Positions 3,885 to 22,310 of a stretch of DNA of 64,000 bases are shown here, piece by piece. The notes under the pieces were generated by a model, which was not told the DNA's origin, made no database searches, and worked only from the letters and a program-made list of their open reading frames with translations. Source of the stretch: a phage; sequence record PX994957.1; one strand, 5' to 3'. A program made the translations under genes and the position numbers. Position 1 is the first letter of the stretch. The number at the start of each line of letters is the position of its first letter.

Positions 3885-4442
3885 TTAAATGGAAAGATAC
3901 CATCCGTTGTAGTTGCTTTTTCTTACAACCTTACGAAGGTCTTCTCTGTCACCGATGAACTTCGGAGTGTACTGGATGACACCTGGATGAATTTCTTTAG
4001 TGTTGAATATAATTATACAGTCAGCGACTTGATGATTTAGAATGGGCCCTAAATTTATTCCAGAACCATATGGATACTCTCCGCTGCATCCCGTTGTTAC
4101 CGAAATCCAACGCGAGTCAGTTTGATGTGTTTTGACTTCTACACGAAGCCCGCAATATTTTGGATGCGCTAAAACATCCCATGCATACGTGTACGGGTCA
4201 TTAACGTCCTCTTGGCCTTTGTTAACATACCCGCTTAGCCAATCTGCTACAAAAAACTCTGCGTACACCGCGATACGGCATCTTTCGATAACTTCTGCTT
4301 TATCCTGGTTCGGGTTTTGTTTTAAAGAGTATCTTGCTGTATCAGCAATTTTGACCTTCATTTCACTAGTCAAATCACTGTTCGATAGGGTAAATGTCGG
4401 AATCTGAAATAGTCTCTGTAAACCCGGATTCGTTTTCTGCAT
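3885..4442 (-). CDS. denB: DenB endonuclease IV
   Basis: 185 aa, equal to T4 DenB length; ATG 4442 with SD AAAGGAAAG; adjacent to rIIB side. Confidence 0.85.
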   Translation of the reverse strand: MQKTNPGLQRLFQIPTFTLSNSDLTSEMKVKIADTARYSLKQNPNQDKAEVIERCRIAVYAEFFVADWLSGYVNKGQEDVNDPYTYAWDVLAHPKYCGLRVEVKTHQTDSRWISVTTGCSGEYPYGSGINLGPILNHQVADCIIIFNTKEIHPGVIQYTPKFIGDREDLRKVVRKSNYNGWYLSI

Positions 4443-4704
4443 TTAGACTTTCCTTTTTACCGCTGAGATAAGCGTTATATACTTTAAGAGTGCCGTAATA
4501 AATTCGGTCATTTTCATCTAAAGACTCACGGTCAAGTTCATCGAGTTCCTTTTTATCCATGACTATAACATCATTGCAATAAAGAAACCCAAGTTTTTTG
4601 TGTCCAAACTCAAATTTATTACAGTACACAATATTAGCGTGATGATTACCATGTAGAGAAATTTCTTTTATGTCGGAATCACCGATATTCATACAATAAA
4701 TCAT
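4375..4704 (-). CDS. hypothetical protein; 3' end overlaps denB start by 68 nt
   Basis: 109 aa; ATG 4704 with SD AAGGTG. Confidence 0.5.
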   Translation of the reverse strand: MIYCMNIGDSDIKEISLHGNHHANIVYCNKFEFGHKKLGFLYCNDVIVMDKKELDELDRESLDENDRIYYGTLKVYNAYLSGKKESLNAENESGFTETISDSDIYPIEQ

Positions 4705-4721
4705 AATTCACCTTAAAACAA

Positions 4722-4737
4722 AAGGGCCGAAGCCCTT
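4722..4737 (-). terminator. UUCG-loop hairpin between genes
   Basis: AAGGGC CGAA GCCCTT; followed on minus strand by UUGUUUUAA then SD of next gene. Confidence 0.5.
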
Positions 4738-4740
4738 ATT

Positions 4741-4935
4741 TTATTTGAATTGTGCAATTCTTTTCTCTAGACACTCAGCATAAGATTTCATTGAGATGAA
4801 CTGTGAAAGCAGCAGTTCTTGCTCAACTGCACTAACCGTTAGAAACTTTGTGCTTTCTAAAAATTTGCTCAGTGCATTAATTTTGAGCATTAATTGATCG
4901 TATTCTTCTTTTACTCGTGCTTGATAACCTAACAT
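4741..4935 (-). CDS. hypothetical protein (rIIB.x-type)
   Basis: 64 aa; ATG 4935 with SD AAGGAAAAT. Confidence 0.55.
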   Translation of the reverse strand: MLGYQARVKEEYDQLMLKINALSKFLESTKFLTVSAVEQELLLSQFISMKSYAECLEKRIAQFK

Positions 4936-4949
4936 AATTTTCCTTAGTT

Positions 4950-4965
4950 AAGGGCCGAAGCCCTT
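4950..4965 (-). other. intercistronic UUCG-loop hairpin abutting rIIB stop
   Basis: AAGGGC CGAA GCCCTT overlapping rIIB stop codon, directly 5' of next SD. Confidence 0.5.
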
Positions 4966-5902
4966 ATTTAAATTGTTCAGTAACGTCTTCAATTACTTCG
5001 TATTGGCAGGTACGCATTTTAGCGTCGTTGTAATCAATCGGAATTGATACTACATCACGAGGATGAACTTTAACTTTTACAACTCGGCTGGTTGAACCAC
5101 CGAAGTGACGAATATAAGATTTAGAACACACATGCAGACCACGAGAACAAGTTTGTGTATCATCGTCATTCACACGAGTACGCGGCATTTTAACTACTTT
5201 ACCAGGACTGTTATCAAAGGTATTTGAGTGACAGTCAAAGTAATTGCTGCGAACTACTTTCCAAGCATAGAAGTAACCATCTTCTGTAATTTCAATATCG
5301 TTTGCTACCAAGAAATCAAAAAGTCGAGATACCGCTTTCTGGCTTGGGTTTTCCAGCAGATTTTCCAAGAACGGAAAATAAACTTCAAAGTTTTCGCCTT
5401 TTTCCATCGAATCAAGAATACGATCAACCAAACCAGACCGCAATTCAATATTTTGATAGAATAAGCTTCCACCTTCAATTCGAACATCGCCGGAAATATA
5501 TTTTTCAACAGCGCGACGAACATTAATTTTTTGTGCCGCTTCTTCCAGCTTATCCGCTACAAGCAGATTGAGAATTTCCTGGAAGTTTGAATGAGTATTA
5601 GGTGTTGCATTATAAGTTACACCATCGACAGTAATCGAAATGAATTTTTTAGATGCATTCCAAATAATGTCAGATTTAGTAACTGGAGCAATAACTGCAT
5701 CGCTATTAACTTTAACTGTAATATCACCGCTAATAGTAACTTTAGAGCGTTTAGCTTCTTCAGCATTTTTCAAAACACGACGGATTGTATCAACCGATAC
5801 ACCTTGCCAATCAGCCAATTCCTGCTGAGTATAATTACCGCTTGAATACAGTTTAACAATTTCAGCTTGTTCGTTTTTGGTCAGGCATTTAATATTGTAC
5901 AT
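4964..5902 (-). CDS. rIIB: RIIB
   Basis: 312 aa, equal to T4 rIIB; immediately downstream of rIIA. Confidence 0.9.
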   Translation of the reverse strand: MYNIKCLTKNEQAEIVKLYSSGNYTQQELADWQGVSVDTIRRVLKNAEEAKRSKVTISGDITVKVNSDAVIAPVTKSDIIWNASKKFISITVDGVTYNATPNTHSNFQEILNLLVADKLEEAAQKINVRRAVEKYISGDVRIEGGSLFYQNIELRSGLVDRILDSMEKGENFEVYFPFLENLLENPSQKAVSRLFDFLVANDIEITEDGYFYAWKVVRSNYFDCHSNTFDNSPGKVVKMPRTRVNDDDTQTCSRGLHVCSKSYIRHFGGSTSRVVKVKVHPRDVVSIPIDYNDAKMRTCQYEVIEDVTEQFK

Positions 5903-16814: not shown

Positions 16815-17561
16815 TTATCCTCGGATAAGTTTAAAAATTGAACAATTTAGTGGGTATCCTCTTTTCAGTTTAAGTTTATCAATAAAAGACAAGTTTTGAT
16901 ACCGCTCTACACCTTGAATAATTTTATCACACATATCATATTGCATTTCTGCTTCTGACAACTTTTTCACAATTTTCCAATCCGAGCCTTTAAGAAGAAC
17001 GTTCAGTTTAACAACTTCAGCGCCTTCTGCTATGCGAGAACCATCAATACGAGCTTTAAGTGCTATAATCCTTAGCTTAATGTCAGAGGTCTGTTTTGAT
17101 TTAGAAAGCTGAGAAATGTGTTCAATTCGATTTTCACGCTTTTTCTGTATAGCTTTAATTTGATTATAAGTCTTTTTGATTTTAGCCCATTTCTTTTCAT
17201 CTAAATTTAGTTTATGAACTTTTTTCGCAGATGAACGACCAATTCGCAAAGCAAATAAATCCCGTTTTTCAATCAACTCTTCTAAAGTATAATCAGAACG
17301 AAATGTATTATACTTTTTCTTTACTGCAATAACGTTCCCTTTAATGTATCCAATGTTATTATCAAAACGTTCTAATGATAATTTCTCTCCTTCAATACGA
17401 TTATCAAAAGGTTCTCCTGAATAGGCACAAACTTTTTGATCTAAAATGTTCTTAATGTAATTGAAGTCTAAGTTAAAATCTTTAGAACGTCTTTTTGCAG
17501 ATGCCTGAGTATGCTCTAAACGACGTTTAATTTTACGAATTTGGTTATTAGACAGTTTCAT
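16815..17561 (-). CDS. srd: Srd-like protein (sigma-mimic host-takeover factor)
   Basis: 248 aa basic protein between dda.1 and modA, the T4 srd position; assignment by position and size only. Confidence 0.5.
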   Translation of the reverse strand: MKLSNNQIRKIKRRLEHTQASAKRRSKDFNLDFNYIKNILDQKVCAYSGEPFDNRIEGEKLSLERFDNNIGYIKGNVIAVKKKYNTFRSDYTLEELIEKRDLFALRIGRSSAKKVHKLNLDEKKWAKIKKTYNQIKAIQKKRENRIEHISQLSKSKQTSDIKLRIIALKARIDGSRIAEGAEVVKLNVLLKGSDWKIVKKLSEAEMQYDMCDKIIQGVERYQNLSFIDKLKLKRGYPLNCSIFKLIRG

Positions 17562-17677: not shown

Positions 17678-18280
17678 TTATAGATTAAATCCTTCAAAAT
17701 CAAGAGTATAGATAGTGTATGTTGAATACTTTTTATACTCATATCTATCTGCAATTCTAAATACACTTCCAGCTGGTATCATTACTTCTTGTTCATCTGA
17801 AACTAATTCCATATTACGATAACGATGGCTATCCGGAAACTTAAAGTTTGGATTGTATTCTTTACAGCGTAGAGCTTTTATAGCATACTCCTGGAAATTG
17901 AATACCATAGGAGCTTTGAATTCAAAAATAACCTGTGTGTTATACTCTAAACCGGAAGCAAAATGTAGAGCTATATTTTTATCATATGAAGCTGATACTA
18001 CTTTATCAAATGTAATAATATCAATTCCTTGATTTAACACTTGCTTAGTCTCGACTGGAACACCTCTCCAAAGAGGTTTATCGTTTGGTTCCAAACGAGA
18101 TTTGATTATTTCATTTAACCAAGTATGGTCATCTGGTTTGTTGGTAATACAATGAATTAAAAGTTCAATTTCAGATAAATTAAACCCTTCAGAAAGTAAT
18201 TCTTCACGAATAGAAGCACGCACCGATGCATCCATTGATTTTATTTTAAAATCTTTTAGTTGCATTACTGAGTATTTCAT
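17678..18280 (-). CDS. modA: ModA ADP-ribosyltransferase
   Basis: 200 aa, equal to T4 ModA; ART-like R / S-x-S / E-x-E pattern (LWRGV, SAS, EQEVMIP). Confidence 0.75.
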   Translation of the reverse strand: MKYSVMQLKDFKIKSMDASVRASIREELLSEGFNLSEIELLIHCITNKPDDHTWLNEIIKSRLEPNDKPLWRGVPVETKQVLNQGIDIITFDKVVSASYDKNIALHFASGLEYNTQVIFEFKAPMVFNFQEYAIKALRCKEYNPNFKFPDSHRYRNMELVSDEQEVMIPAGSVFRIADRYEYKKYSTYTIYTLDFEGFNL

Positions 18281-18900
18281 TCAACTACCTCAATATCATA
18301 AACTTTAAATGTTCCAAATGAATCGTGTAATTTTTCTTTTGAAATAGAAGTTATTTTATACTTTCCAATTGGAATCATCCATTCTTGTTCACGCACAATC
18401 ATCATTAAGTTATCAGTTCTTTCTGAATCTAACCCGTCAGTATCTTCATACGTGTACTTAAACTCAGTATTAGGAGAAGAAAGTATAATATCGCTGATAT
18501 GGTCAGAATAATTAAAAGCTTTATCAGTTTTTAAGCGAAAAATTATTTCAGTGAAATATTCAGCATAAGAAAAAGAACACGCTGTATGCAAACTAGTAGT
18601 AAATGAATCTACCCTGTTCGTTGAAAACACTTCTCCAACTTGTAAATCTTTAATGAGTTCTTTTGTCGATTTTGATATACCACGATATAATTGATAAGGC
18701 GATTTAATTAAATGCTTTTTAATGATTTTATTCAACTGTCTGTGAAGAGCTTCATTCTTTTTGGCTTCCATACATTGCCAAAGAACAGACTGCTCAAAGT
18801 CAGTAAATTTTTCACAGACCTTTTTATACATATCATATTGAAAATCAACGCTTTCAGCTTTTATAGATAACTGTTCAACATCTGCAAGATTAATAATCAT
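18277..18900 (-). CDS. modB: ModB ADP-ribosyltransferase
   Basis: 207 aa, equal to T4 ModB; paralog of modA (LYRGIS, EQEWMIP). Confidence 0.75.
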   Translation of the reverse strand: MIINLADVEQLSIKAESVDFQYDMYKKVCEKFTDFEQSVLWQCMEAKKNEALHRQLNKIIKKHLIKSPYQLYRGISKSTKELIKDLQVGEVFSTNRVDSFTTSLHTACSFSYAEYFTEIIFRLKTDKAFNYSDHISDIILSSPNTEFKYTYEDTDGLDSERTDNLMMIVREQEWMIPIGKYKITSISKEKLHDSFGTFKVYDIEVVE

Positions 18901-18926
18901 GATAGCCTCCGTATACTTCAGAAGCT

Positions 18927-18956
18927 ATCATATCATCGTTAGAAAGGAAAGTAAAC
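18927..18956 (-). promoter_or_regulatory. T-even early promoter upstream of modB
   Basis: GTTTAC (18951-18956), 18-nt spacer, TATGAT (18927-18932). Confidence 0.5.
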
Positions 18957-18967
18957 AACTTTTTGAA

Positions 18968-19150
18968 TTATTTTGCCCAGGGAGCCCAAGGCGGAGGGTC
19001 AAGATGGTATGAAGCTAGTTCTTCTAGAAGAGCATCTGGAGCTTCAATTCCATAATTCTGTAATACTATACGGTATTCTTTCTTATAATCACTAGAATCA
19101 TTCTGGTTATTCGTAGAATGATTATCTTCTAACATCTCAAATAAATCCAT
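18968..19150 (-). CDS. hypothetical acidic protein
   Basis: 60 aa; ATG 19150 with SD AGGAATTAAT. Confidence 0.5.
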   Translation of the reverse strand: MDLFEMLEDNHSTNNQNDSSDYKKEYRIVLQNYGIEAPDALLEELASYHLDPPPWAPWAK

Positions 19151-19158
19151 ATTAATTC

Positions 19159-19629
19159 CTAGCGATAAAAACCAAATTGACGATTAGCTTCAACAATCTT
19201 TCTTTCTTCTTCAGACATTCTCCAGCGTAGTCCAACGTCAAAATGAGCCCAGACCATCTTAACAAATGCATTTATATCTTTAATATCTTCAATAATGAAT
19301 GTTTTACTTTTCGAAGGTTGACTCGCTAATTTAACTTTATCATCTTCAAACAGGTCAAAAAGACCATATTCATGAGCTCTTTTATAGCCTTTAATAGTTA
19401 AAGCTTCAGAAGAAGAAAACGGTGAATCAGTATTCTGCAAAATATCTTCAGTATGCTTTATAATTAGAATAACATTTTCTGGATATTTTCTTTCTTTTAT
19501 ATCTTTAATTAAAAAATCCGGATTTTCTGCTAAAGGAATAATTAACGAGCATTTTTTACCAAGAGTATTTACTGATTTACCTTCTTTAGACATAAATTCT
19601 ATTGAATAATGTTTTGCTACTTCAATCAT
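19159..19629 (-). CDS. hypothetical protein
   Basis: 156 aa; ATG 19629. Confidence 0.55.
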
Positions 19630-19786
19630 GTGATTTCCTTTTGCCTACTAATGGACCGTCGGGAATTTTGTTTTCCTGGATATATTTCTCATTTTCTTCC
19701 ATCATTTTACTACCGATTTTAAGAAGCAAATCCATTGCTTCATTTGCTTTAGCTTTAGCCTCTTCTAACGTCATATCTTTGTTCAT
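19622..19786 (-). CDS. 54-aa hypothetical protein
   Basis: ATG 19786 overlapping upstream stop (ATGA); [25 protein letters not shown]; absent from ORF track. Confidence 0.4.
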
Positions 19787-19986
19787 GATTTATCACCATA
19801 GATGTCTCTCATCAATTTAAGCGCTGAGCGTTCTAATTTCTTTTCTTTCTCAGCACTAATCATTGATTTCATCCATTCTTCCGATTCGTTCTGCATTTCT
19901 TTATTTGCTTGTTCAACCCAGCCATCATCAATATACATTGAGTTTGGTCGATTAAACCATTCAAATATTTTCTTTAGGACTTTCAT
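19783..19986 (-). CDS. hypothetical protein
   Basis: 67 aa; ATG 19986. Confidence 0.5.
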
Positions 19987-20455
19987 TCATTTTACCTAAA
20001 ACAATAGTAGGAGCATCGTCAAATTTATGAATTTTTAGCAAATTTGGAGTTAATTTATTCCATAAAGAAGTAATAAAATATGATAGCGCAATTTCTTCCG
20101 CAATTATGAATTTATTTCCCTTATCTCCCTTATCTATTTTCCAGTCATGTACTGAATCATATGAATAGAAGGACAGCGGTTTATTGTTATAAAATGCTTC
20201 ACCAACATCAATATAGTTAGATTTAGTAAATGCTTGAATTGACGTAAATGGAGAATTTTGTACAGTTTCAATAATTCCGATCTTTTTAAGTTTTATTTCA
20301 ACATCTTCTGGAACTGGCATTGAAATAAAATCTTCTACTAGATACATGCTATTGTCATATCTTTTGTCAATCATTACTGCTACAGTAATTGGAACATCCT
20401 TGACAAACGCCATACTAATACTATTAATAAACATTTCAAACAAAATTGCTTCCAT
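19961..20455 (-). CDS. hypothetical protein
   Basis: 164 aa from ATG 20455 with SD GAGGAAAATT; track start is TTG. Confidence 0.55.
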
Positions 20456-20463
20456 AATTTTCC

Positions 20464-20796
20464 TCAATCACAAGATGTAGATGAACAACTAGAATCACAA
20501 GAACTTCCGCATGAATCACTTGCCCATACGTGAACAGGAACATTTGTATCATATGAAGAATTAGAACTTTTAACTTCGTTAGAAGATGTAGGTACTGACC
20601 ATCGCCAAGGATTTTTATAATATTCTTGGGCTTCTTCATAAGTCATAGTAACTGCTTCTACTGTTCCATCTCCCATATAAACATACTCAACTACAGTTAA
20701 AGGAAGGTAGTCATTTGAAATAGGAACTACACCTTCCCCAGGAGTCGTAGAGAAAAAATCCGTAAAGAAACTTTTAAACCAATTAAAGATAAACAC
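20464..20796 (-). CDS. hypothetical protein with Cys/Ser-rich C-terminal tail
   Basis: 110 aa, GTG start after SD GAGAGGT; C-terminus [18 protein letters not shown]. Confidence 0.5.
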
Positions 20797-21002
20797 TACA
20801 AAAAACCTCTCTTGAATTCAACTTGCTTCTCGCCATAATCATATCGAATCTCTGCATTAAATTCGACAGAACCATCTGCGTACATCATAAATGAATGCAC
20901 AACAACTTCTGTGGACCATGGCTGCAGTTCATATTTCTTCATTACATGTCGTGAAATGATAATATCTAAATCTTCATTTGGTTTAATCCAACGATTTAAC
21001 AT
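20796..21002 (-). CDS. hypothetical protein (soc.x-type)
   Basis: 68 aa; ATG 21002 with SD GAGGAGAGCAC. Confidence 0.55.
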   Translation of the reverse strand: MLNRWIKPNEDLDIIISRHVMKKYELQPWSTEVVVHSFMMYADGSVEFNAEIRYDYGEKQVEFKRGFL

Positions 21003-21027
21003 AGTGCTCTCCTCTATAAGATAATTT

Positions 21028-21057
21028 TATTATACCATACTCATTTTGGAAAGTAAA
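21028..21057 (-). promoter_or_regulatory. T-even early promoter
   Basis: GTTTAC (21052-21057), 18-nt spacer, TATAAT (21028-21033). Confidence 0.5.
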
Positions 21058-21073
21058 CCGGTAAAATGAAAAA

Positions 21074-21091
21074 GGACTCCCTAGGGAGTCC
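21074..21091 (-). terminator. intrinsic terminator after soc
   Basis: perfect palindrome GGACTCCCTAGGGAGTCC followed on minus strand by CUUUUUCAUUUU. Confidence 0.6.
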
Positions 21092-21099
21092 TTGAATTA

Positions 21100-21336
21100 T
21101 TAACCACCTATTTCTGTAGGCGTAAACATTGCAGCATTCTTAGTTTTCCAAGTTGCTGCATCGGAAACTACATCAGAATAAGCTGCTTTTTCTGACGGAA
21201 AGATTTGATAATGAGAATCTGCAATACGGTGTTCATTTGAATATACATCAAATGCTACAGAAACTTCCATACCTTTAACTTCTTTGCCTTCACCTGCTGG
21301 ATGAGTAAAGGTCTTGATGTTAACGAAACCACCCAT
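21100..21336 (-). CDS. soc: Soc small outer capsid protein
   Basis: 78 aa; VNIKTF, SVAF, HYQIFPSEKAAYS resemble T4 Soc; late promoter motif upstream. Confidence 0.75.
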   Translation of the reverse strand: MGGFVNIKTFTHPAGEGKEVKGMEVSVAFDVYSNEHRIADSHYQIFPSEKAAYSDVVSDAATWKTKNAAMFTPTEIGG

Positions 21337-21367
21337 AATAAACTCCTTTATTGTTTAATTACAGGTG

Positions 21368-21375
21368 TATTTATA
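21368..21375 (-). promoter_or_regulatory. T4-type late promoter (TATAAATA) for soc
   Basis: exact TATAAATA on minus strand about 30 nt upstream of soc SD AAAGGAG. Confidence 0.55.
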
Positions 21376-21377
21376 AC

Positions 21378-21518
21378 TTACAATTTAGCGGCTTTCCAGA
21401 GTTGTTCAATAATCTCTTGGTCTATTTCTTTAGTTATTTCATTACGTAATAAAGCAGTAAGGGCTTTCGCCCTTTTCTTATTCAACTTTTTGAGTTGACG
21501 TTTATTTAAACAAGCCAT
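21378..21518 (-). CDS. possible 46-aa basic protein; may be non-coding
   Basis: ATG overlaps gp56 stop (TAATG) but no SD; contains GAAA-loop hairpin (21460-21475) and MotA-box-like TGCTTTA. Confidence 0.3.
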   Translation of the reverse strand: MACLNKRQLKKLNKKRAKALTALLRNEITKEIDQEIIEQLWKAAKL

Positions 21519-22036
21519 TAATAACCTCGGTCTTGACGTGCGAAATTTTCAGCATTTTTCAGGTAATAAAGTTTAAAGATTTCTTCTGCTGTAAGACCAA
21601 GACCTTGGAACATGTTCAGAACGAAATGGAGAATATCAATCATTTCAAACTTAATTTCCAGTTGGTCTTGTGGAGACAAATCAGTAATCAGAGTTTCACG
21701 GCGTTCACCATGCTGCGACTTCCAAGGCTTCCATACAGCAGATGCATCTTTTTCACCATTGCTCATACCACCAAGAGAAGTCAGAAGTTCACGGAATTCA
21801 TCATCAATATAATCTTTCTGATTACGCAACCAATCAACAACTTCACCGGCAGTAGCCAAGTCATCAGGATGACGATTATATTCAGGTTTATCTTTAGCTA
21901 AACGAATTTGCAGAGATTTCTGCATGTCAAGCATTACCTGCAGCGGGTCTTTTTCATCACCGAGAATATCCCAATATTCATTTTGAGCTTTATCAGCGCC
22001 TTCGATCAGTTGACTACATTCGTTGAAATGTGGCAT
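21518..22036 (-). CDS. 56: gp56 dCTPase/dUTPase (MazG-like)
   Basis: 172 aa (T4 gp56 171 aa); ATG 22036 with SD AAAGGAAAAAT. Confidence 0.88.
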   Translation of the reverse strand: MPHFNECSQLIEGADKAQNEYWDILGDEKDPLQVMLDMQKSLQIRLAKDKPEYNRHPDDLATAGEVVDWLRNQKDYIDDEFRELLTSLGGMSNGEKDASAVWKPWKSQHGERRETLITDLSPQDQLEIKFEMIDILHFVLNMFQGLGLTAEEIFKLYYLKNAENFARQDRGY

Positions 22037-22072
22037 GTTATTTTTCCTTTCAATTCATGGGTTAGTAGATTA

Positions 22073-22097
22073 ATTATACAATAAATATATAAAGCAA
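22073..22097 (-). promoter_or_regulatory. MotA-dependent middle promoter for gene 56
   Basis: MotA box TTGCTTTA (22090-22097), 11-nt spacer, TATAAT (22073-22078). Confidence 0.5.
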
Positions 22098-22109
22098 TAA
22101 GGAGGACAT

Positions 22110-22310
22110 ATGGTACAAAAATTAATGGCACTTGTTAATGCCATAAAAGGTAATAAAAAACGTATAGCTTTTACTATTTCTGCTATGGTAGGAATTTTAC
22201 TCTGGAACTTTATTCTATCACCTGTTGCAATTGCGCATGGTATTAATATTCCAGTAGTTACTCTTGATACATTTGTAGATTTAGCATTTGCTTTAGTTGG
22301 GTTAATTTAA
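22110..22310 (+). CDS. 66-aa hydrophobic protein on the opposite strand between 56 and 61
   Basis: strong SD AAGGAGG (22099-22105) then ATG 22110; MVQKLMALVNAIKGNKKRIAFTISAMVGILLWNFILSPVAIAHG; stop interleaved with gp61 stop. Confidence 0.45.
   Translation: MVQKLMALVNAIKGNKKRIAFTISAMVGILLWNFILSPVAIAHGINIPVVTLDTFVDLAFALVGLI

Follow-up and report, generated by a model that had tools for sequence, protein, structure and literature searches.

The modB-soc interval of a 64,000-nt stretch of phage DNA (PX994957.1; the whole stretch is referred to below as the window) raises two questions: what its seven small open reading frames (ORFs) are and whether their content differs from strain to strain. 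The initial annotation described the interval as a variable block of uncharacterized ORFs of the kind in which T4-like phages keep strain-specific host-interaction genes. Both questions were addressed by comparison with annotated T4-like genomes, protein family and structure searches, gene counts over a phage collection, and published T4 data.

Gene content and layout

The window is a Tequatrovirus (T4-like) genome in which the genes from modB to soc all lie on the minus strand (Table 1), and among records Shigella phage Sf23 (NC_054941) comes closest to it over 18500-21800, at 97.5% identity. Comparison with annotated T4 and Sf23 maps the seven ORFs one-to-one onto T4 modA.2, modA.3, modA.4, srh, mrh, mrh.1, and mrh.2. 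The T4 counterpart of the block is NC_000866 13198-15232, and genes, order, strand, overlaps, and the flanking modB and soc are all the same in T4 and in the window. Packing is tight, four of the junctions being overlaps of 1, 4, 8, and 26 nt: the 26-nt overlap is between srh and the 3′ end of mrh, the 4-nt one between modA.4 and srh, and the 8-nt one between modA.4 and modA.3. The length of Mrh is counted from the ATG at 20455, the mechanical ORF having 168 aa from a TTG. The block was already known: work on T4 mapped its genes and gave them names decades ago, and hundreds of genomes carry annotations for them. In many GenBank records, modA.2, modA.3, and modA.4 bear the wrong label "molybdenum ABC transporter," owing to the gene name.

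Table 1. Features of the modB-soc region in window coordinates. Phage records were counted by tblastn over the phage collection, gene by gene, with each record set counted separately.
Feature	Position	Strand	Description	Identity to T4 protein (%)	Records, total	Records at identity threshold
srd	16815-17561		In the early region that includes the block, downstream of it beyond two genes (modB and modA)			
modB	18277-18900	-	Left flank			
RNA hairpin	18892-18937	-	Predicted; the modB promoter -10 region pairs with the modB Shine-Dalgarno and AUG			
Second T4-type early promoter	18927-18955	-	GTTTAC-17-TATGAT, between modA.2 stop and modB			
modA.2	18968-19150	-	60 aa, acidic, PHROG 1647	100	993	502 (at least 95%)
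modA.3	19159-19629	-	156 aa, Pfam PF24070 T4_MRH; mrh paralog	94	600	502 (at least 90%)
modA.4	19622-19786	-	54 aa, PHROG 2681	100	588	498 (at least 90%)
srh	19783-19986	-	67 aa, PHROG 2441 ("decoy of host sigma32")	97	603	501 (at least 90%)
mrh	19961-20455	-	164 aa, Pfam PF24070 T4_MRH; most divergent gene of the block	87	654	502 (at least 60%)
Tandem duplication in mrh	20112-20135	-	9 bp; adds three residues relative to T4 WKIDKGNKF; tandem repeat finder and protein alignments			
mrh.1	20464-20796	-	110 aa, GTG start, Pfam PF23836 DUF7206	88	502	502 (at least 80%)
mrh.2	20796-21002	-	68 aa, PHROG 1873	99	743	379 (at least 95%); two allele classes
T4-type early promoter	21029-21057	-	GTTTAC-17-TATAAT, extended -10 (TGG upstream of the -10)			
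Intrinsic terminator	21072-21093	-	Terminator of the upstream late gene soc; terminator scan and direct sequence reading			
soc	21100-21336	-	Right flank			

The encoded proteins are small and mostly acidic. They matched PHROGs 1647, 1234, 2681, 2441, 2031, and 1873 with E-values of 1e-31 to 1e-53, each protein its own family. Pfam matches for the block were limited to PF24070, found twice, and PF23836: ModA.3 and Mrh matched PF24070 at 133.3 and 126.7 bits, respectively, both over profile positions 1-143 of 144 (gathering cutoff of 24.4), and Mrh.1 matched PF23836 at 92 bits over positions 1-107 of 107 (cutoff of 25.6). Because Pfam puts both in the T4_MRH family, ModA.3 and Mrh are paralogs; in BLASTP, they share 30% identity over 53 aa. 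Pfam gave no recognizable catalytic domain in the seven proteins, and searches of all seven against NCBIfam and PADLOC returned nothing above cutoff, the sole PADLOC match, Mrh.2 to BrxC (12 bits, E = 0.0066, 40 residues of a 937-position profile), being taken as noise. Rfam, searched with 18500-21600 and an E limit of 1, returned two matches, both at chance level and far under the gathering scores.

Transcription signals

The upstream (right-hand) edge of the unit is the soc terminator, a hairpin (AAGGACTCCCTAGGGAGTCCTT) with a T-run directly after the soc stop; in its 9-bp G+C-rich stem, AAGGACTCC pairs with GGAGTCCTT around a 4-nt loop (CTAG), and TTTTCATTTT comes next. The early promoter at 21057-21029 is followed in the 3′ direction by a ribosome-binding site (GAGGAG) and the start codon of mrh.2 (ATG at 21002) and, judged from this arrangement, would drive mrh.2 through modA.2. 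The second early promoter, at 18955-18927, is invariant in six Tequatroviruses. Because the block genes are on the minus strand, this promoter lies downstream of the block, and it would drive modB-modA rather than the block. A strict pattern search found neither a MotA-box middle promoter nor a TATAAATA late promoter inside the block. The block fits an early (sigma-70-dependent) unit, with an early promoter upstream and without internal middle or late promoter matches. The predicted modB hairpin has a fold energy of -20.8 kcal/mol (z = -5.4) vs only -1.6 kcal/mol for the transcript from the proximal promoter; as modeled, it would form only on read-through transcripts from the block.

Taken together, the interval is very probably the Tequatrovirus ortholog of the T4 early unit mrh.2-mrh.1-mrh-srh-modA.4-modA.3-modA.2, for which we infer a role in host takeover. 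Several elements of the initial annotation agree with this layout: the seven ORF lengths were confirmed from the ORF list, all on the minus strand; the absence of recognizable catalytic motifs was upheld; and both boundary elements, the promoter-terminator cassette by soc and the promoter at 18927, are real and were read in the sequence. Other elements needed correction. The promoter at 18927 exists, but it does not drive the block, lying downstream of it and serving modB-modA instead. The interval had been placed at 19159-21002, which holds six of the ORFs but leaves the 60-aa ORF (modA.2) outside. The description "uncharacterized" held only in part: each of the seven has a T4 gene name, and genetic phenotypes have been published for mrh and srh.

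Proposed role of the unit

The unit may be a host-takeover module of conditional use, directed at the transcription and heat-shock machinery of the host; it adjoins modB and modA, which encode ADP-ribosyltransferases, and the anti-sigma-like srd. Passages in PMC6070864 and PMC8076793 report effects of mrh and srh on late transcription, both at 42°C and in rpoH mutants, the functional evidence for both genes being old genetics (Frazier and Mosig 1990; Mosig et al. 1998) cited second-hand.

Srh would contribute through a segment like sigma-32 region 4.2, which might plausibly compete with sigma-32 for a partner, e.g., the RNA polymerase core. The protein matches PHROG 2441 over its full length (E = 9.4e-41) and is 97% identical to T4 Srh. 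Its residues 23-60 align with residues 244-279 (region 4.2) of Escherichia coli RpoH at 32% identity (BLASTP, E = 7e-4), a short (38 aa) and weak similarity; the alignment scored 58, shuffled sequences averaged 30.5 ± 5.1, and a score of 58 was reached in 1 shuffle of 5000. Srh gave no similarity signal against RpoD. The similarity to RpoH is kept in the Dhakavirus Srh and was not found in the Gelderlandvirus Srh. The Pfam sigma-70 region 4 models gave no match to Srh at E up to 0.1, and the AF2 model of Srh (single-sequence and low-information) is one long helix (residues 21-63; pTM of 0.44), not a helix-turn-helix. The "sigma-32 decoy" label for Srh is thus backed by a weak sequence similarity only.

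T4 Srd and AsiA are, like the block proteins, early, small, and non-essential or conditionally needed. The annotation of Srd postulates a decoy role toward RpoD and RpoS, the counterpart of the one postulated for Srh toward RpoH. The binding of AsiA to sigma-70 region 4 is an established mechanism, whereas that of Srh is only postulated. Neither Srd nor AsiA showed a sequence relationship to any of the seven proteins.

Several observations count against a host-takeover role: the second-hand nature of its functional part, the shortness of the Srh-sigma-32 similarity (38 aa, 32%) without a Pfam sigma-70 region 4 match, the Gelderlandvirus Srh without the similarity, the single-helix model of Srh, and the finding of no sequence tie to transcription for ModA.2, ModA.4, Mrh.1, or Mrh.2. 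The lack of a knock-down effect also weighs against it. When the T4 orthologs were knocked down singly, there was no fitness cost in the laboratory host, except for mrh.1, which was scored as marginal ("Semi-Fit") (PMC11879866, supplement 15). In keeping with accessory genes, all seven fall within the dispensable delta-12 region of T4 (PMC6070864).

Mrh alleles and fold

At the protein level, mrh is 74-87% identical to its genus counterparts where its neighbors are 93-100% identical, and the DNA identity profile has a trough in this gene, with 70-84% to T2, T6, ZJUN4, and ECO4 and 81-98% to T4. Against Sf23, mrh has 100% identity apart from the 9-bp duplication. At least three allele classes of Mrh are present (about 98%, 83-87%, and 74-76% identity), and only 12 of the 654 records with Mrh carry one at least 90% identical to that of the window. 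The dS of mrh is ~0.5 and its dN/dS is 0.27-0.42 vs T2, T6, ZJUN4, and ECO4; the dS vs T4 is 0.115. This pattern fits old alleles exchanged by recombination under a somewhat relaxed or diversifying constraint. That mrh alone in a frozen operon has several deep alleles is the mildly puzzling point of the locus.

The AF2 model of Mrh (pLDDT of 77.5, pTM of 0.72) has an alpha/beta core and a disordered C-terminus. It matches BFVD models of the MRH family from seven other T4-like phages (TM of 0.5-0.66, E-values of 1e-8 to 2e-4), all of them uncharacterized MRH proteins from phages of Salmonella, Klebsiella, Enterobacter, Citrobacter, Yersinia, Pectobacterium, and Erwinia. In the PDB, Foldseek found no relative of the Mrh model (best E = 0.53, TM of at most 0.27); a PDB sequence search at E up to 1 gave no match for Mrh and two chance-level matches for ModA.3 (E about 0.9). 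The predicted alpha/beta fold of Mrh and ModA.3 appears to be confined to T4-like phages. A total of 56 MRH-family sequences were assembled by homology searches that used a word prefilter and covered the best 120 matches each, with the distant members seeded from individual loci. Recombinant T4 Mrh is reported to form megadalton homo-oligomers by size exclusion (PMC8076793); the same paper mentions a cryo-EM structure of Mrh that it does not present.

Of the other two genes that depart from the uniform identity of the block, mrh.1 has a short identity trough in its linker. Mrh.1 is acidic (pI of 4.1); its linker, rich in Ser/Thr/Asn, varies, and its C-terminal tail is invariant. A Ser/Cys tail acting as a hypervariable repeat was considered and rejected, since the tail does not vary within the genus and all of the variation is in the linker upstream of it. 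Mrh.2 is 99-100% identical to its T4, T2, and T6 counterparts and only 60% identical to that of ZJUN4, a divergent allele of mrh.2 being found in ZJUN4-type phages.

Such alleles bear on a second explanation, in which some of the proteins, most of all Mrh and Mrh.2, would be counter-defence factors or defence triggers and the rpoH phenotypes would be side effects. The divergence of mrh (74-87% amid flanks of 93-100%) and its raised dN/dS (0.27-0.42) speak for it, as does the fact that the genes are early, small, acidic, and dispensable in the laboratory yet universally kept, a combination that is typical of known T4 counter-defence genes. However, the dN/dS of mrh is still well under 1, its high dS (~0.5) fits old recombining alleles better than recent positive selection, and no paper among those searched ties any of the seven genes to a defence system. 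A counter-defence function is, on this evidence, unlikely. A more specific form, in which mrh and to a lesser degree mrh.2 would be under diversifying or balancing selection, with Mrh assemblies engaging a variable host factor (e.g., a defence sensor) and the rpoH phenotype being secondary, is considered quite unlikely. Host takeover is retained as the preferred role for the unit.

Conservation within and beyond the genus

As a proxy for the genus, records with a gp61 primase of at least 95% identity were taken; there were 502, with almost none between 95% and 80%. In blastn with the 2,035-bp block, 498 phage records gave one contiguous match to 80% or more of its length. The gene-by-gene counts are given in Table 1; modA.2 is the widest-spread of the seven and is also found in T4-like phages of Klebsiella and Enterobacter. 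All seven genes are present in the same order in the six Tequatroviruses examined (T4, T2, T6, Sf23, ZJUN4, and ECO4), and a pan-genome study places mrh and srh in every phage belonging to the T4 group (PMC5885020). The 100-nt identity profile stays at 92-100% to genus members from modA through srh, including across the left boundary. No sharp identity drop was seen at the left edge of the block; the only drop lies right of 21100, outside the block. By these comparisons, the block is an ordinary conserved accessory operon of the genus core and not a strain-specific variable cassette.

That the interval is instead a strain-specific variable cassette holding differing host-interaction or anti-defence genes is very improbable. 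The content does differ between genera, the genes are dispensable, and mrh and mrh.2 occur as discrete divergent alleles within the genus. Against this, content and order are invariant within the genus (498 full-length contiguous matches vs 502 records), T4, T2, T6, Sf23, ZJUN4, and ECO4 all have the seven genes, DNA identity from modA.2 to srh is 92-100%, and the pan-genome study gives mrh and srh in every T4-group member (PMC5885020). At the strain level, the six-genome synteny and the 498 contiguous matches refute it.

The initial annotation fared less well here than for the layout. Gene content described as variable was found as a contiguous block in nearly as many records as the genus proxy contains, changing only between genera, and the synteny comparison with T4, T2, and T6, which had been suggested as a check, gave the same seven genes in the same order in each, so that strain specificity was not upheld. 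The expectation that T4-like phages keep strain-specific host-interaction genes at this position holds insofar as these are early accessory genes, non-essential and of the host-interaction type, but they are not strain-specific. They are conserved across T4-type phages, and none is a housekeeping gene. A variable interval bounded by a promoter-terminator cassette does exist, as the soc-56 segment and not as the modB-soc block.

The soc-56 segment is found one step to the right. Exactly at the terminator-promoter cassette, identity falls to 55-75%, and it remains low through soc and gene 56. The Soc protein of the window is 46-49% identical to the Soc of T4, T2, and T6 and 90% identical to a Mosigvirus Soc. 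For gp56, identity is 72-74% to the T4 protein and 89% to that of a Dhakavirus. The content between soc and 56 is segF and dam in T4, two small ORFs in T2 and T6, and one 46-aa ORF, without segF or dam, in the window. The true mosaic, cassette-bounded variable segment is, by the identity profile, this adjacent soc-56 interval.

As a discovery, the block is of little weight, and the outcomes are mainly corrective, placing it in the genus core and not among strain-variable regions. Six of the seven conserved proteins, those without an assigned mechanism, are reasonable, not special, targets for functional screens.

Coding status and expression

The dN/dS is 0.00-0.49 for every gene (Nei-Gojobori, five other Tequatroviruses), a range that points to purifying selection on all seven. 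T4 data put modA.2, modA.3, modA.4, srh, mrh, and mrh.2 in the early RNA class and record detection of their proteins (PMC9697503, supplements 4 and 6). A literature search for modA.2, modA.3, modA.4, and mrh.1 by name in main texts gave unrelated papers only. The seven ORFs are real, expressed, and selected genes. That some of the shorter ORFs (54-68 aa) arose by chance in AT-rich spacer DNA and are not genes, as their shortness and lack of a Pfam domain match might suggest, has almost no chance of being right and is refuted by the match of each to its own PHROG (E-values of 1e-31 to 1e-41), the presence of each in 588-993 phage records, the dN/dS of 0.00-0.49, and the detection of T4 ModA.2, ModA.4, Srh, and Mrh.2 as proteins (PMC9697503 supplements).

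Comparison with related phages

The five other Tevenvirinae genera compared have the same modB-soc position, with at least one MRH-family gene and a modA.2 homolog each; they carry subsets of the seven genes plus unrelated small ORFs, and protein identity is only 25-79%. Mosigvirus (PhAPEC2) keeps mrh.2, one MRH gene, and modA.2, with two unrelated small ORFs; Dhakavirus (WG01, KIT01) is without mrh; Jiaodavirus (KEN39) keeps one MRH gene and modA.2; Gelderlandvirus (CGG4-1) keeps srh, one MRH gene, and modA.2; and Kanagawavirus (CIP9) has hoc inserted beside soc. It is at this between-genus level that the description "plastic" applies.

In T4, the intergenic region with the modB early promoter is identical to that of the window. 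The two differ in Mrh, which in the window contains a duplicated DKG (3 aa) and represents an allele class that is rarer, and in mrh.1, which in the window has a GTG start and a linker 3 aa shorter; right of the block, T4 has another soc allele, plus segF and dam, which are absent from the window. Sf23 (gp143-gp149) has zero substitutions relative to the window from mrh to soc and also has the 46-aa ORF between soc and 56, without segF or dam. It differs in lacking the DKG duplication in Mrh and in its dS of 0.09-0.18 from modB to srh. Because substitutions between Sf23 and the window occur from modB to srh and are absent from mrh to soc, a recombination breakpoint is placed near the srh/mrh junction.

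The true mosaic segment starts immediately to the right of the block of seven early genes (mrh.2 to modA.2), with soc and gene 56 (positions in the table). DNA identity falls from >90% to 55-75%, and the fall is located exactly at the cassette formed by the soc terminator and an early promoter at the right-hand edge of the block. Soc of the window is 46-49% identical to Soc of T4, T2, and T6, but 90% identical to that of Mosigvirus PhAPEC2 and 83% to that of Dhakavirus WG01. For gp56, identity is 72-74% with T4, T2, and T6, 89% with Dhakavirus, and 98% with the Tequatrovirus ECO4. The spacer between soc and gene 56 holds one small basic ORF; this position is occupied by the homing endonuclease gene segF in T4 and by two small ORFs in T2 and T6. 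The interval from gene 56 to primase gene 61 (22037-22306) contains no dam methyltransferase in the window; the only ORF there is labelled as a predicted membrane protein in the record of Shigella phage Sf23, the closest match to this part of the window.

Features in and around the block (window positions)
Feature	Position	Strand	Description
RNA hairpin at modB start	18892-18937	minus	-20.8 kcal/mol, z -5.4
Tandem duplication in mrh	20112-20135		9 bp
3' end of mrh.1	20464-20530		encodes the Mrh.1 C-terminal tail
soc	21100-21336		
46-aa ORF	21378-21518		basic; sole ORF of the soc-56 spacer
gene 56	21518-22036		
66-aa ORF	22110-22310	plus	only ORF between gene 56 and gene 61

Compared with Sf23, the window has zero substitutions from mrh through soc, but the stretch from modB to srh shows dS values of 0.09-0.18, which places a recombination breakpoint between the two phages at the srh/mrh junction (19900-20000). 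Across mrh, the two differ solely by the tandem duplication, which is missing from Sf23 and adds DKG to Mrh (164 aa versus 161 aa). In the neighboring gene mrh.1, the start codon is GTG in the window and Sf23 and ATG in T4, T2, and T6. The C terminus of Mrh.1 is an acidic Ser/Cys tail of 18 invariant residues with the cysteine spacing C-x3-C-x3-C-x4-C, a related form of which is retained in the Dhakavirus homologues, and the Ser/Thr/Asn/Gln linker upstream of the tail varies by 3-aa indels.

At the other end of the block, a stable hairpin is predicted in which the modB Shine-Dalgarno sequence and AUG base-pair to the -10 region of the early promoter of modB itself; the hairpin sequence is identical across six Tequatroviruses. 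Because of this pairing, the modB start would be masked on read-through RNA from the seven-ORF unit. A transcript begun at the proximal modB promoter folds at only -1.6 kcal/mol with the modB start left open, and such RNA would expose the start.

GenBank records matching 18968-19786 propagate wrong product names. In many of them, modA.2, modA.3, and modA.4 are named [quoted passage not shown] a label evidently derived from the gene name modA. In addition, AP018813 (T2) and NC_054907 (T6) list modA.4 as "prohead core scaffold protein," and modA.3 is "baseplate hub subunit and tail lysozyme" in AP018813. In the same T2 record, modB is split into two annotated CDS (429 nt and 129 nt; positions 4387-5008 of the T2 locus compared), and the alignment of ModB from the window with the first piece covers only 65%, which together suggest a frameshift or sequencing error.
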